This document shows, piece by piece, positions 4,445 through 10,285 of a stretch of DNA of 10,285 nucleotides. Position 1 is the first letter of the stretch, and each line of letters starts with the position of its first letter. Under the pieces are notes generated by a model. That model worked only from the letters and a program-made list of their open reading frames with translations. It ran no database searches and was not told the origin of the DNA. Source of the stretch: a virus (Duplodnaviria > Heunggongvirae > Uroviricota > Caudoviricetes); the IMG/VR virus record IMGVR_UViG_2531839374_000022, one strand, 5' to 3'. Made by a program: the position numbers and the translations under genes.

Positions 4445-4710
4445 GGCAGCCTCCTTTGTGTTTAAGGAGTCACCGCCTGAGTTTCCACGCTCTGAAATGG
4501 CGGTGACGTTAGCAGGGGTGGAAATACCGGACACAAAGGAAACCGGCCTACGCGAACGTAGCCCCACTAACGCCACCATTGATACAGTACGGACTAGGCC
4601 GCTGATTTGATGTGCGTAGTGATCGGACACAAAAAAAGACGCTTTCGGCGTCTGTGTCGCCCTGAGTGTGTTCGGGTTTCCACGCCCGGTTGCTGATTTT
4701 GCAGCAACGC
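4445..4710 (-). ncRNA. Candidate structured leader / antisense-RNA immunity region (P4 CI / P1 C4-like): hairpins, direct repeats and a terminator
   Basis: On the minus strand: hairpin GTTGCTG-CAAAAT-CAGCAAC (plus 4689-4708); direct repeat GCGTGGAAAC at plus 4676-4685 and 4481-4490; a complementary TTTCCAC at plus 4518-4524; direct repeat TTTGTGTCCG at plus 4624-4633 and 4528-4537; UUCG-loop hairpin at plus 4548-4561; 9-bp stem GTCACCGCC/GGCGGTGAC (plus 4469-4477 and 4499-4507) enclosing one repeat copy, immediately upstream of the Shine-Dalgarno at 4449-4454. The family assignment is inference. Confidence 0.35.
4631..4653 (-). terminator. Rho-independent terminator (minus strand)
   Basis: Minus strand reads AGACGC-CGAAA-GCGUCU followed by UUUUUUU; 6-bp GC-rich stem at plus 4637-4642 / 4648-4653, then a run of seven T on the minus strand (plus 4631-4637, the last shared with the stem). 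Confidence 0.55.
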
Positions 4711-4940
4711 TTGGACTATAACAGCTTTTCTCTGCTAGGTGGTCATACCAGATAAAACCGTAACCCTTTAAGAGTTTTTCCTGTGCACGGCTCACCATCT
4801 TTTTGTTGAGGGTAAGCGCCTCGCGTACTGGTAACGGAACTCCGGGCGCTGCGGTATCAATATCAGGTTTTATAAGGTTGTAAGGGTTAACATTTGTTAA
4901 CAGGCCAGCCAGATTAAAGGCTTCTTTCTGGGCGGCAGGT

Positions 4941-5938: not shown

Positions 5939-6370
5939 TTATGCGGCGGTGAGATTGTCCGGGTATAGATTGAGAGTGTCGGCAATTTCAGGCTGAGAAA
6001 GTCCCTGATAGCCGCCAGCGTCGGCGTTATGGTTCACAAGCCGAATAACTTTTAGAACGTCACCGCGCCCGGTAAAGCGATAGCGTAAATGTGACCCTAT
6101 CCCGTCGGGGTTCTTTTCGTCTATACGCTCAAGCTGAATATCAAGCCTGCGCTCTAACTCGCTGGCGTAGTTCCTTCCAGACGAAAGGCGGCAATAACGC
6201 AGAATGTCATTTTCTGTCCATCCCTCTATACCAGTACGCAGCATATAGACTCTGGCACGATGCTTTTTCGGTGTGCGCTTTGGTGCTTGAAGGGATTTTG
6301 TAAGGGGCGTAACATCAGATACGCGAATATCTGAATTAGCCGCCTGTAATGGGCGGTTTTTCTTTTCCAT
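5939..6370 (-). CDS. Hypothetical protein (143 aa), translationally coupled to alpA
   Basis: Track ORF; its ATG shares the A of the alpA stop codon (TGATG overlap). Basic N-terminus; no motif recognised. Confidence 0.6.
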   Translation of the reverse strand: MEKKNRPLQAANSDIRVSDVTPLTKSLQAPKRTPKKHRARVYMLRTGIEGWTENDILRYCRLSSGRNYASELERRLDIQLERIDEKNPDGIGSHLRYRFTGRGDVLKVIRLVNHNADAGGYQGLSQPEIADTLNLYPDNLTAA

Positions 6371-6573
6371 CAGGCCACCTTCCCGCGGCGTTCTGCCAGC
6401 CAGTTGTGAATCTCAACCGCATCAAACGCAGTTATTTTTTCTCCCAGCTTTACCGGACGTGGTAGTGAACCGTTTCTTACTTTACGGTCGATGGTGGATA
6501 CACTAACGCCCAGCAATTCAGCCAGGCGGAAGCGTCTGATATAGCCTTTTGTAGGGATAGTGTCGATGTTCAT
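6370..6573 (-). CDS. alpA: AlpA/Vis-family helix-turn-helix regulator (prophage CP4-57-type regulatory protein / excisionase-like)
   Basis: 67 aa; RFRLAELLGVSVSTIDRKVRNGSLPRPVKLGEKITAFDAVEIHNWL fits the AlpA-family helix-turn-helix pattern; GAGG Shine-Dalgarno upstream of the ATG at 6573. Confidence 0.85.
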   Translation of the reverse strand: MNIDTIPTKGYIRRFRLAELLGVSVSTIDRKVRNGSLPRPVKLGEKITAFDAVEIHNWLAERRGKVA

Positions 6574-6612
6574 GATTCCCGTAACCTCTTAGCGATAGTT
6601 GTTGCTTCGTTA

Positions 6613-6617
6613 CGGGT
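6613..6617. repeat. IS2 target-site duplication, left copy (CGGGT)
   Basis: CGGGT immediately outside the IS2 end at 6618; identical pentamer at 7949-7953. IS2 is known to make 5-bp duplications. Confidence 0.8.
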
Positions 6618-6628
6618 TGGATTTGCCC

Positions 6629-7534
6629 CTATATTTCCAGACATCTGTTATCACTTAACCCATTACAAGCCCGCTGCCGCAGATATTCCCGTGGCGAGCG
6701 ATAACCCAGCGCACTATGCGGATGCCATTCGTTATAATGTTCGAACGCCTCTGCAAGGTTCTTTGCTGCCGTTAACCCGTCTGGTTTGGGCATGATACTG
6801 ATGTAGTCACGCTTTATCGTTTTCACGAAGCTCTCTGCTATTCCGTTACTCTCCGGACTCCGCACCGCCGTGTTCTTCGGTTCAAGTCCCAACATCCGGG
6901 CGAACTGGCGTGTTTCATTAGCCCGGTAGCATGAACCATTATCCGTCAGCCACTCCACTGGAGACGACGGAAGATCGTTGCCGAAGCGGCGTTCCACCGC
7001 TCCCAGCATGACGTCCTGTACTGTTTCACTGTTGAAGCCGCCGGTAGTCACCGCCCAGTGCAGTGCCTCACGATCACAGCAGTCCAGCGCGAACGTGACA
7101 CGCAGTCTCTCTCCGTTATCACAGCAGAACTCGAACCCGTCAGAGCACCATCGCTGATTGCTTTCTTTCACGGCCACTCTGCCTGTATGTGCCCGTTTCG
7201 ATGGCGGTACAGCAGGTTTTCGCTCAAGCAACAGCGCATTCTGGCGCATGATCCGGTAAACACGTTTGGCATTGATCGCAGGCATACCATCAAGTTCTGC
7301 CTGTCTGCGAAGCAGCGCCCATACCCGACGATAACCATACGTGGGCAGCTCTCCGATAACATGGTGTATACGGAGAAGCACATCCGTATCATCAGTGTGA
7401 CGACTGCGGCGGCCATCCATCCAGTCATCGGTTCGTCTGAGAATGACGTGCAACTGCGCACGCGACACCCGGAGACAACGGCTGACTAAGCTTACTCCCC
7501 ATCCCCGGGCAATAAGGGCGCGTGCGCTATCCAC
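6629..7534 (-). CDS. insD: IS2 transposase OrfB (InsD), 301 aa
   Basis: Track ORF; protein [34 protein letters not shown]... matches IS2 InsD as remembered; GTG start; expressed as the OrfAB fusion by -1 frameshifting. Confidence 0.95.
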
Positions 7535-7857
7535 TTTTTTGCCCGTCCATATTCAACGGCTTCTTTGAGGAGTTCATTTTCCATCGTTTTCTTGCCGAGC
7601 AGGCGCTGGAGTTCTTTAATCTGCTTCATGGCGGCAGCAAGTTCAGAGGCAGGAACAACCTGTTCTCCGGCGGCCACAGCAGTAAGACTTCCTTCCTGGT
7701 ATTGCTTACGCCAGAGAAATAACTGGCTGGCTGCTACACCATGTTGCCGGGCAACGAGGGAGACCGTCATCCCCGGTTCAAAGCTCTGCTGAACAATTGC
7801 GATCTTTTCCTGTGTGGTACGCCGTCTGCGTTTCTCCGGCCCTAAGACATCAATCAT
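7492..7857 (-). CDS. insC: IS2 transposase OrfA (InsC)
   Basis: Track ORF 7492..7902 has an upstream GTG extension; the canonical InsC start [26 protein letters not shown]... is the ATG at 7857. Confidence 0.95.
7534..7541 (-). other. Probable IS2 -1 programmed ribosomal frameshift site (A6G slippery run) in the insC/insD overlap
   Basis: Minus strand reads GGGCAAAAAAGTGG in the InsC/InsD overlap (plus ccactttttt gcccg at about 7531-7545). Frameshifting at an A6G motif is established for IS2/IS3-family elements; the exact position here is by eye. Confidence 0.5.
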
Positions 7858-7948
7858 CTGTACTCCAATGACTAGTCTAAAAACTAGTATTAAGACTATC
7901 ACTTATTTAAGTGATACTGGTTGTCTGGAGATTCAGGGGGCCAGTCTA

Positions 7949-7953
7949 CGGGT
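7949..7953. repeat. IS2 target-site duplication, right copy (CGGGT)
   Basis: CGGGT immediately outside the IS2 end at 7948, identical to 6613-6617. Confidence 0.8.
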
Positions 7954-7962
7954 ATTTAATGG

Positions 7963-8025
7963 CGTGCACGCTCAAAAAGGAATGATCGTATTTTTTACTA
8001 TCGTGATAGTAAAATTTACTATCAC
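7963..8025. promoter_or_regulatory. Operator-like palindrome cluster between the orphan gene and IS2/alpA
   Basis: Perfect 10-bp palindrome GCGTGCACGC (7963-7972); inverted repeat TACTATC-gt-GATAGTA (7996-8011) with a third half-site TACTATCAC (8017-8025). On the plus strand GTGATAGTAAA / TTTACTATCAC can pair and is followed by CTTTTTTT (8026-8033), so the same sequence could act as a plus-strand terminator. Confidence 0.35.
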
Positions 8026-8870
8026 CTTTTTTTCCCTGCCGTGGTGCGTTCTTCCGGTGTTCTGTCTGTGTCGGCTATGAGTTTCTTCAGGTAATCTATG
8101 GATGGCTCATCATAGCCGCCCCCCAAAAGCGCCCAGTGGTTTATTGTGGCGTTCGCCCATGCTTCGTTGGTTTCCTTCCCGTTCTTCCCTTTACACTCTT
8201 CTGGGTAGTGCCGCTTCACATAAATCAACGCCAAGAGGCAAATTTCGCGCTTTTGCCTGTGGCGCTCTCTGTTTCCGTGCTCAACGTTTTTAACATCCTC
8301 ATAAAGAGCTTGTAAGTTTATGCGAGTTTCGGGGCTGTATATGGGCTGGTTTTTGTCCATGCATTCGCCGATATATTCAACCCACGGCCTTGTTATGTAC
8401 AAATCCTCTACGGATATTTCGTGGAAGGCATGTTTTGTATAATCGAGAAAAAAATAATAATTCGCACTTACGTCTAGTTCTCTTTTTCTGTGTGCGGGGC
8501 TGAATATGCGTGCGGGAGTGTCAATAGAATCAAGCCCTGCGATGTCGAGTATATAGGAGGCGTTAACATGCCATAGCCCAAGCACATGGCAATCTATATG
8601 ATTTACAACGCCTGCCTTAAAGCTTTTTTCGTCCTCTACTTCAGTGATTATGTCGGCAAGTAATAAGCAGTCTTCTTTGACGTCTGGGAATAAAGAGCAA
8701 TTGCGGTAAAGACTCGCGATGCTATGTAATGTGCCGTCGTAGCCGCAAAGGTACGCGCTCAAATATATAGATTCTGCCGCCGCCATAATCAAAAGATCAT
8801 CAATATCTATTTCTAATAATTCGGCTGCTCTGTTAAGCCTGAAAAAAGGGGCGGGTGGTAATTTTTTCAT
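8022..8870 (-). CDS. Hypothetical protein (282 aa), AT-rich orphan cargo gene between the integrase and alpA
   Basis: Track ORF; ATG at 8870 preceded by AGGTGA Shine-Dalgarno. The DNA is visibly more AT-rich than the rest of the window (long A/T runs; exact GC not computed). N-terminus FFRLNRAAELLEIDIDDLL is weakly helix-turn-helix-like; no catalytic motif recognised. Confidence 0.65.
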   Translation of the reverse strand: MKKLPPAPFFRLNRAAELLEIDIDDLLIMAAAESIYLSAYLCGYDGTLHSIASLYRNCSLFPDVKEDCLLLADIITEVEDEKSFKAGVVNHIDCHVLGLWHVNASYILDIAGLDSIDTPARIFSPAHRKRELDVSANYYFFLDYTKHAFHEISVEDLYITRPWVEYIGECMDKNQPIYSPETRINLQALYEDVKNVEHGNRERHRQKREICLLALIYVKRHYPEECKGKNGKETNEAWANATINHWALLGGGYDEPSIDYLKKLIADTDRTPEERTTAGKKR

Positions 8871-8965
8871 TGCGTCACCTTTTACGCTGCGCCTTATTTT
8901 GTGATTGAGCCAGGCGGTAAGGCTTCCCGCTTTTCGCCCCGTCGAGCTAGGCTCAATCTATTCAG

Positions 8966-10285
8966 TTAGTTCGCCCTTCTGAGAGGCGTTACGTTGTAGT
9001 CTTTTCCGCTTTCCAGTGCCACCAGCAGATCAGCCCACTGTGCCAGTGCTGCTTTACGCTCATCAAAATACTGATGGCGGTTATAAATCCCCTCTACGCC
9101 CTTAATGCGATGATTGAGGCATCGTTCCGCCACAACAGGATCAACACCCAACGCTGCTAAATGAGTACGTGCGGTGCGTCGAAAGTCGTGAATCGTGAAA
9201 TTAGGCACATCCGGCATTTCGGCGCGAACCTTAGCCAGTGCTACGGGTAAAGTGCTTTCCTGAATATGTGGGATCATTCTGTTTTGCATCTTCCTGGCCG
9301 GAAGCACCCATGCGCTATTACATGAAAAGGTGTGTAGCTCTCTCAACCATTCAACGGCTGGGGAAGGTAGAGGTATATCAATAGGGTCTCCGTTTTTGCT
9401 GCGTTCTTCCGGCAAATGCCATACCGCACCATCTAAATCAAACTCTTCCCATCGTGCGGCGCATAATTCCATTTTGCGGACGCATAACGCTAACAGTAAT
9501 TTGAACGTGATTTCGTTCTGGCGACTGAATCCCTTAGCCGTGCGCATGGCTTTGAATAGCTGGATTAACTCATCGCGGGTTAACCAGCGGTCACGGGCAG
9601 CTTCTTTCCCTCCGGCGTCTGCCACCTCAAAGGCTGAACAGGGGTTAATCTCTAGCGCGTGCCGTTTGATTCCGTAGTCGAATATGCGGCGCGTCCATCT
9701 CAGCACGTCCGTTGCTATGGTCGGCGCTCCACGGTCAACAATACCTTTCAGCATGTCATCGATATGGCGCGGTTTCACGTCCTCTACCTTCATGCTGCCA
9801 ATGCAGGGGTTTATATCTTTGTCGATACGGCGGCGGAGTATATCGGGGTGCTTCCAGCGCGGGAGGATCTGACGCTCAAAGTATTCAGCGGCAAGCTCTG
9901 AAACGCGCATAGCGTTCTTCTCTGCTTCCATCTTCGCCAGTGCTTCGGTTTTGCGCTTCTGCTTCTCTCCTGCAACGTCATAGCCCAGCGCAACGCGAGC
10001 CGATAGCTCTTTGGCTGTCTCTCTGGCCTTTGATAGTGATAGCTCGCTATACGAACCAATTAGCATGGCGCGGGACTTCCCTGCGAGTTTATAGCGGAAT
10101 CTCCATGTGGGGGTTTTGTCGGCTTCACGGTAACGTAGGTATAAACCGTTACCGTCTGCCCGCCCCTCGAATCGCTCTCCGCTCTTAATCCATGCGCGGA
10201 TCTGCATGTCTGTTAGTTTTGGCATTTTGCGAATATCCAAACTTTGAATAGGGGGTGTACCCAAAGCAATGTACCCAAACCTCAT
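8966..10285 (-). CDS. int: Tyrosine-type site-specific integrase, P4-like family (N-terminal arm-binding domain + catalytic domain)
   Basis: Track ORF of 439 aa reaching the window edge. N-terminal GNGLYLRYREADKTPTWRFRYKLAGKSRAMLIGSY matches the P4-type arm-binding (DUF4102-like) pattern; C-terminal HDFRRTARTHLAALG...NHRIKGVEGIYNRHQY carries the R/H-x-x-R/Y catalytic signature. A more typical start is the internal ATG at 10225 (MPKLTDMQIRAWIK...). Confidence 0.9.
   Translation of the reverse strand: MRFGYIALGTPPIQSLDIRKMPKLTDMQIRAWIKSGERFEGRADGNGLYLRYREADKTPTWRFRYKLAGKSRAMLIGSYSELSLSKARETAKELSARVALGYDVAGEKQKRKTEALAKMEAEKNAMRVSELAAEYFERQILPRWKHPDILRRRIDKDINPCIGSMKVEDVKPRHIDDMLKGIVDRGAPTIATDVLRWTRRIFDYGIKRHALEINPCSAFEVADAGGKEAARDRWLTRDELIQLFKAMRTAKGFSRQNEITFKLLLALCVRKMELCAARWEEFDLDGAVWHLPEERSKNGDPIDIPLPSPAVEWLRELHTFSCNSAWVLPARKMQNRMIPHIQESTLPVALAKVRAEMPDVPNFTIHDFRRTARTHLAALGVDPVVAERCLNHRIKGVEGIYNRHQYFDERKAALAQWADLLVALESGKDYNVTPLRRAN

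Follow-up and report, generated by a model that had tools for sequence, protein, structure and literature searches.

A complete copy of the insertion sequence IS2 has recently entered, by a simple insertion, the short stretch of DNA upstream of alpA, the gene for an AlpA-family regulator, in an island that looks like a Gram-negative phage-inducible chromosomal island (PICI). Its probable, though by no means certain, effect is that alpA can no longer be induced and the island is locked off. The DNA concerned, the window, is the 10,285-nt IMG/VR record IMGVR_UViG_2531839374_000022, to which all coordinates refer (Table 1). That the insertion is simple and recent is evident from an otherwise identical allele of the same island from which IS2 is absent. 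The proposed consequence comes from comparison of related sequences, in which the position now occupied by IS2 falls exactly between a promoter-like −10 hexamer and an RNA hairpin that encloses the alpA ribosome-binding site.

A simple and recent insertion of an intact IS2

The element has the length of IS2, about 1331 bp, and the imperfect terminal inverted repeats described for it (PMC3299598), the left repeat (IRL) beginning TAGACTGGCCCC and the right repeat (IRR) ending GGGGCAAATCCA. By direct reading the terminus at 6618, which is the IRR end, is TGGATTTGCCCC and that ending at 7948, the IRL end, is GGGGGCCAGTCTA. Over 1331/1331 bases it is 99.9% identical to copies in thousands of Escherichia coli records, where the annotation is ‘IS3-like element IS2 family transposase’, and the single nucleotide that distinguishes it from the copy in CFSAN029787, at 6740, is a synonymous difference. 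The overlapping orfA and orfB are both intact, with the rve (DDE) catalytic core in the latter, and so is the A6G −1 frameshift window (7540-7534) contained in orfA, which is as described for IS2 (PMC3299598). This copy is apparently complete and transposition-competent. Its transposase is read from the minus strand, as is alpA.

On both sides of the element stands the pentanucleotide CGGGT (ACCCG when read on the coding strand), the 5-bp direct duplication of a simple insertion, and 44 bases (6574-6617) separate the IS2 end from the alpA ATG (6573-6571, minus strand). A look-up by exact protein found an IS2-free allele of the same island in Logan contig L148 (ERR5984617). When IS2 and one CGGGT are removed from the window the two are identical at 8949/8949 bases, with no mismatch, and because of this identity the event can be called a recent simple insertion. 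Relatives in E. coli strains 50EVAW and 042, about 85% identical overall, also run uninterrupted across a single CGGGT, and over some 60 bp around it their identity to the window is 100%. The allele with IS2 is present, identical to the window, in NCBI assembly GCA_000296305.1 (L003, L147), and its junctions are found at contig ends in ERR048277, SRR061722 and SRR061723. The junction with IS2 is absent from all 5426 complete E. coli genomes searched, and an exact 24-mer spanning the empty site has no match among GTDB species representatives. Arrival would have been by ordinary copy-out/paste-in transposition with its 5-bp duplication. The first-pass annotation, made from the letters of the window, had already described an intact IS2 and a recent simple insertion with every coordinate correct; the empty site that it proposed to reconstruct from IS2-free relatives exists in nature, in L148.

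A hairpin around the alpA ribosome-binding site

An inverted repeat had also been noticed to bracket the alpA ribosome-binding site, with the insertion point in its distal arm, and both points stand. The 5′ arm CCCGTAAC (6616-6609, minus strand), which the CGGGT duplication overlaps, pairs with the 3′ arm GTTACGGG (6585-6578), and the 23-nt loop between them holds the Shine-Dalgarno sequence AAGAGG (6590-6585). The predicted folding energy is −13.6 kcal/mol (z = −3.47), and the structure forms equally in the native RNA and in RNA that reads out of IS2.

Is it conserved as RNA? From 138 loci with an AlpA of this clade, drawn from genomes, metagenomes and IMG/VR, 65 unique leaders were obtained, and nearly all have the stem. 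Covariation was assessed on a MAFFT alignment of 54 unique leaders with a slid partner and 500 shuffles as controls. Pairing cells amount to 94.8%, as against 25-39% in the slid controls; compensatory changes are seen in 5/8 stem pairs, and 0/500 shuffles reach the observed values. No Rfam family matches the hairpin, a permissive scan giving only hits at chance level. As judged from these leaders the repeat behaves as an RNA stem and not as a protein operator, and what is conserved is a stem that encloses the Shine-Dalgarno sequence.

A promoter position beside the hairpin

Upstream of the stem, only the positions of a −10-like and a −35-like hexamer are conserved across relatives. In the 54 unique leaders the consensus bases of the −10 position are counted as T23, A30, T25, A29, A35 and T43, and a match to TATAAT at four or more of the six positions occurs in 36/54 at this fixed offset, with 0-11 at all other offsets. 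A TTGACA-like −35 signal of the same stringency (at least 4/6) stands out only at a 17-bp spacer, in 18/54 leaders versus 0-7 at other offsets. In strain 873.10 and at related loci an intrinsic terminator of the upstream open reading frame (ORF) directly precedes the promoter position, which argues for a promoter of alpA's own there. We infer a sigma70-like promoter, positionally conserved just upstream of the hairpin, with a predicted transcript start at about 6611, that is near arm position 6 and inside the 5′ arm.

The remainder of the upstream region is of another kind. Between integrase and alpA different relatives carry different genes, and homology with those whose cassette differs from that of the window ends exactly at the outer base of the stem. 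For this reason 7954-8021 is part of a variable module; as a conserved operator region of alpA it was tried and rejected, the homology of such relatives stopping at GTTACGGG. It had been called operator-rich (7954-8025) and part of a regulatory region split by IS2. The repetition is real, TTACTATC occurring three times at 7995-8023 against an expectation of 0.14 for the window as a whole, though only cassettes of this type have it; and IS2 does separate alpA from promoter-like and operator-like sequence, but not from a conserved alpA regulatory region. The two tandem palindromic units, candidate operators that contain the three copies of this motif, have their centres upstream of the predicted start, at distances of some 45 and 66 bp. 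A similar palindrome architecture with diverged sequence is found in E. coli 042 and 50EVAW and is absent from relatives with other cassettes.

The palindromes overlap the end of a 282-aa ORF whose family is evolving fast: it forms 46 clusters at 50% identity, fills the slot upstream of alpA in 73/114 loci, and has a distant relative in the 321-aa ORF that strain 873.10 carries in that slot. Neither this ORF nor the 143-aa ORF downstream of alpA has a match in Pfam, NCBIfam, PADLOC or PHROGs. Its position next to the repeats weakly suggests a DNA-binding regulator with the 21-bp units as its possible sites.

In several relatives (L006, L011, L023, L053, L066 and L082) CTGT-N8-ACAG-like sequences, one mismatch from a LexA box, lie 20-35 nt upstream of the hairpin, where they overlap the −35 and the spacer of the presumed alpA promoter; they are absent from the window. 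Different cassettes may wire alpA to different signals.

Consequences for alpA, and other ways of reading the insertion

IS2 sits exactly between the −10-like hexamer and the leader hairpin. On the promoter side TTAAAT is now followed by ACCCG|TAGACT, the first seven bases being the same as in the native ACCCG|TAACGA. On the alpA side the hexamer that has come to occupy the −10 position is AATCCA, and neither a promoter scan nor direct reading gave a sigma70-like promoter on that side of IS2. With this arrangement alpA would have lost its own promoter. Transcripts from the promoter side would now enter IS2 in the direction of its transposase and have to cross 1.3 kb of mostly untranslated orfB RNA before reaching alpA: most ribosomes would stop at the end of orfA, and the ∼870 nt of untranslated orfB RNA that follow would invite Rho-dependent polarity. 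Since the duplication restored the 5′ arm, transcripts that did read out of IS2 would carry it complete, and the hairpin should form and mask the Shine-Dalgarno sequence that it encloses. That alpA is cut off from induction, with the island locked off, is on this evidence the probable outcome.

Several considerations weigh against it. A generic promoter scan found no site in 6300-8200, and because of this the promoter argument has to rest on comparative positions; in the window itself the −35 matches poorly (2/6), and the promoter is assigned by positional consensus. The Rho-dependent polarity invoked is the classical behavior of IS2, carried over to this copy. Covariation extends to the outer pairs of the hairpin, although the start is predicted to lie within the 5′ arm, which implies either that read-through RNAs matter or that the real start is further upstream. 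Some AlpA could still be made from transcripts that cross IS2.

Might IS2 instead have switched alpA on? Activation or rewiring by a fusion promoter, or by read-through from the transposase promoter, would make AlpA constitutive or alter its expression, and the first-pass annotation had raised a hybrid promoter with flanking sequence. There are grounds for thinking of it: the IRR with its outward −35 adjoins alpA, the transposase runs in the same direction, fusion promoters formed by IS2 are on record for ampC, acrEF and neoR, and a search of the sense strand within IS2 gave no intrinsic terminator. However, Pjunc, to which that −35 belongs, strictly needs a 17-bp spacer between its −35 and −10 (PMC3299598), and at that spacing the −10 slot (6616-6611) reads CCCGTA, a 0/6 match to TATAAT, so that a fusion promoter at the IRR is ruled out and the suggestion of a hybrid promoter falls. 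With a spacer of 18 bp the slot would read CCGTAA and with one of 19 bp CGTAAC, both without the key A2 and T6. The converse arrangement at the other end, a −35 from the flank with the −10 TAGACT of the IRL, was also rejected: at 17 bp upstream stands GCGTGC, and TTGAGC is 21 bp away. As to read-through, the transposase promoter PIRL is weak and repressed by OrfA according to the literature, and the transcripts that emerged would keep the full hairpin around the Shine-Dalgarno sequence. Besides, overproduction of AlpA drives excision and uncontrolled replication of the PICI EcCICFT073, yet this island sits integrated in an assembled contig. Activation is accordingly held to be quite unlikely.

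That the insertion makes no difference to alpA is unlikely too. Its needs might be met within the retained 44 bp, or its expression might come from elsewhere, for instance from a distant promoter that crosses IS2 efficiently. Of the upstream sequence only the 43 bp up to GTTACGGG are conserved in every type of cassette, and the duplication left the hairpin intact, both of which favor neutrality; but hairpin, Shine-Dalgarno sequence and spacer fill all 44 bp, no −35/−10 pair fits there by scan or by direct reading, the −10 position is taken by AATCCA, and the positional −10 and −35 signals are upstream of the insertion point. A further possibility concerns the repeat itself, which might be a DNA operator for a dimeric protein such as AlpA, IS2, which cuts at the margin of the distal half-site, then mainly disturbing protein binding. 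In favor of this, the half-sites of a palindrome may change in concert, AlpA is an activator of its own promoter in EcCICFT073 and EcCIMP1, and the upstream sequence yielded no further conserved candidate for an AlpA site. Against this, arm spacing (the hairpin loop) varies from 13 to 28 nt among relatives; arms differ in compensatory fashion even between elements whose AlpA proteins are 93-96% identical; the non-Watson-Crick cells are, on the sense strand, G.U in 32 cases and A.C in only 4; the 5′ arm of a short-loop clade pairs directly with GGAG; and the half-site was in any event restored by the duplication. With spacing so variable, compensatory changes and an excess of G.U, an operator was judged unlikely, indeed highly so, and the loss of the promoter, with the hairpin left to mask whatever reads through, is the reading preferred here.

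Table 1. Features of the window bearing on the IS2 insertion upstream of alpA
Feature	Position	Strand	Basis and remarks
alpA, 67-aa AlpA-family regulator	6370-6573	minus	Pfam Phage_AlpA, E = 2.2e-8
alpA leader hairpin	6578-6616	minus	Covariation and folding
Target-site duplication CGGGT, alpA-side copy	6613-6617		Direct reading; single copy in L148 and relatives
Complete IS2 (1331 bp)	6618-7948	minus	Full-length match (99.9% identity) to E. coli IS2; termini read directly
IS2 orfB frame, 301 aa, rve integrase core	6629-7534	minus	Pfam rve, rve_3, HTH_21
Outward −35 hexamer TGGAAA of IS2 IRR (−35 of Pjunc)	6634-6639	minus	16 bp from IS tip
IS2 orfA, 121 aa, ATG at 7857	7492-7857	minus	Pfam HTH_Tnp_1 (ORF 7492-7902)
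Target-site duplication CGGGT, promoter-side copy	7949-7953		Direct reading; left junction also in L004 (ERR048277)
−10-like hexamer TTAAAT	7954-7959	minus	Ends 1 nt before the hairpin in the empty site; now faces IS2 IRL
−35 position, TTCCTT (2/6 match)	7977-7982	minus	Spaced 17 bp from the −10-like hexamer
Two imperfect palindromic units of 21 bp, in tandem	7983-8002, 8004-8023		Candidate operators; overlap stop codon of 282-aa ORF
282-aa ORF of fast-diverging family	8022-8870	minus	Usually between int-alpA RNA and alpA
int-alpA RNA motif (Rfam RF02996)	8891-8957	minus	60.6 bits; gathering score 35.8
Tyrosine integrase of the island, adjoining chromosomal yicC	8966-10285	minus	Pfam; context in L003, L147

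The island

The genes of the island follow one another on the minus strand in the order integrase, int-alpA RNA, 282-aa ORF, [IS2], alpA, 143-aa ORF, AntA antirepressor, DUF4222 protein, Ash, small ORFs and a primase with Zn-ribbon, Toprim and DUF927 domains. It is integrated between yicC and a dinD-like gene, the site also used by the relatives in E. coli 042 and 50EVAW. Because the chromosomal flank is 99.6-99.7% identical to E. coli and a fragment of a neighboring ORF, 99% identical, bears a name from Shigella boydii, the host is taken to be E. coli in the broad sense, probably Shigella.

PICI membership was taken to mean an island of roughly 10-18 kb at a specific chromosomal site, and the island has int, alpA and pri-rep in one orientation at such a site. 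Its architecture looks like that of a Gram-negative PICI, in particular EcCIMP1: with EcCICFT073 and EcCIMP1 it shares int, alpA and a primase with the same three domains, all in one orientation, and with EcCIMP1 also the AntA antirepressor and Ash genes. It differs from them in that its primase is split by IS4 and its alpA cut from the upstream region by IS2, and in the conserved 220-330-aa ORF between int and alpA. The likeness is known from genes, while for EcCICFT073 and EcCIMP1 the literature has induction, packaging and transfer. That alpA encodes an AlpA-family regulator, as the first annotation had it, is borne out by Pfam; a tblastn search of a phage collection with the protein gave no match. 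For Gram-negative PICIs AlpA serves as a self-activating, helper-phage-dependent master activator (PMC6092414, PMC11773190), EcCICFT073 and EcCIMP1 being the cases in point.

No phage structural or lysis gene was found among the ten window ORFs scanned with Pfam, the part of the island beyond the primase being covered by precomputed Pfam labels only. A P4-like satellite was considered and rejected, as the psu, delta, sid and epsilon domains are neither among the window ORFs (Pfam) nor among the precomputed labels for the remainder of the island. Beyond its primase the relative in 042 (L005 4469-9305) has genes for P22-like DNA-ejection proteins, a PerC-family regulator and a Doc-type toxin; the corresponding part of the window's island differs, with SSB and a PRiA4_ORF3-domain protein.

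Two other RNA features of the island deserve mention. The int-alpA RNA of Rfam follows directly downstream of int and scores above the gathering threshold, both in the window and in 12 relatives. From alpA it is set apart by the variable ORF, standing about 1 kb upstream, and it is distinct from the alpA leader hairpin. In the window and these 12 relatives an ORF of 220-330 aa is always between this RNA and alpA. Inside the Ash/Icd-like region (4496-4721, minus strand) are C4 antisense RNA, isrK and c4-a1b1 target motifs, all above their Rfam gathering thresholds. Together they make up an antisense immunity module of the P1/P7 type, here in a PICI-like island, and they are conserved in L001, L002 and L006-L008.

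Earlier damage by IS4

IS2 was not the first insertion sequence to enter the island. An IS4 with a 12-bp duplication (GAGCAGACGGAG) breaks the primase gene in its 3′ part, the break falling exactly on position 1 of the window and the IS4 itself (L147 12434-13875) being just outside the window. The 810-aa primase of the window takes its stop codon from the IS4 end, with about 107 codons stranded past IS4. The IS4 junction is identical in the IS2-free allele, the primase thus being interrupted in both, and since this is so the island was already damaged when IS2 arrived. The silencing or rewiring of alpA that the first-pass annotation had contemplated carries less biological weight for it. With the primase gene already split, the IS2 insertion is most simply seen as further neutral IS-mediated decay in an IS-rich genome and not as adaptive rewiring.

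Fold-back insulation of alpA?

Why should the outer pairs of a stem covary when the native transcript is predicted to start (at ∼6611) inside its 5′ arm? It is this combination that suggests, as a hypothesis, a fold-back design in which only RNAs that read through from upstream form the full alpA stem. Davis, Simons and Kleckner in 1985, and Krebs, Schulz and Reznikoff, reportedly described fold-back inhibition of the transposase mRNAs of IS10 and IS50, which is said to protect these elements from external read-through. There, as in the alpA leader, a hairpin encloses the ribosome-binding region, its 5′ arm is at or upstream of the (for alpA, predicted) native start, and only read-through RNAs would have the complete stem. 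The alpA arrangement is deduced from covariation and the positions of promoter hexamers, and the gene that would be protected is a satellite regulator, not a transposase as in IS10 and IS50.

These strands can be joined in one picture, speculative and rather improbable as a whole, of a promoter within a hairpin insulating the alpA switch, with IS2 at the hinge and a phage-responsive promoter that now drives the IS2 transposase. mRNAs from the alpA promoter would be without the GC-rich half of the 5′ arm and be translated, and read-through mRNAs would be masked; promoter and candidate operators of the neighboring MerR-like 282-aa protein would now serve the IS2 transposase and not AlpA. If true, IS2 transposition would be tied to infection by a helper phage, and the island would remain locked all the while.

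Significance

The kind of event to which IS2 upstream of alpA belongs is well known, and the case is a new one. With IS2 insertions in regulatory regions of E. coli and Shigella (gal, ampC, acrEF) it has in common the element itself (99.9% identity), 41/42-bp imperfect terminal repeats, orfA/orfB with the A6G frameshift, the 5-bp duplication, a site adjoining AT-rich promoter-like DNA and an IRR with an outward −35. Unlike in the ampC type of case no usable −10 is present at the required 17-bp spacing and a fusion promoter is not formed; and what IS2 has hit is a phage satellite's switch gene, not a gene of metabolism or resistance. The insertion adds to the cases in which insertion sequences erode a mobile island in an IS-rich E. 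coli/Shigella genome.

Its main value is for the study of the alpA switch. The mechanism by which a helper phage switches on alpA in Gram-negative PICIs is still described in the literature as unknown. For one widespread alpA clade the comparisons add elements that can be tested: a leader hairpin with covariation, a promoter that keeps a constant position beside it, and a fast-evolving, probably DNA-binding neighbor gene with palindromic repeats nearby. Public samples hold a natural isogenic pair, otherwise identical alleles with and without IS2, which is useful for locating the alpA promoter and for ascertaining whether the leader hairpin blocks translation of read-through RNA.

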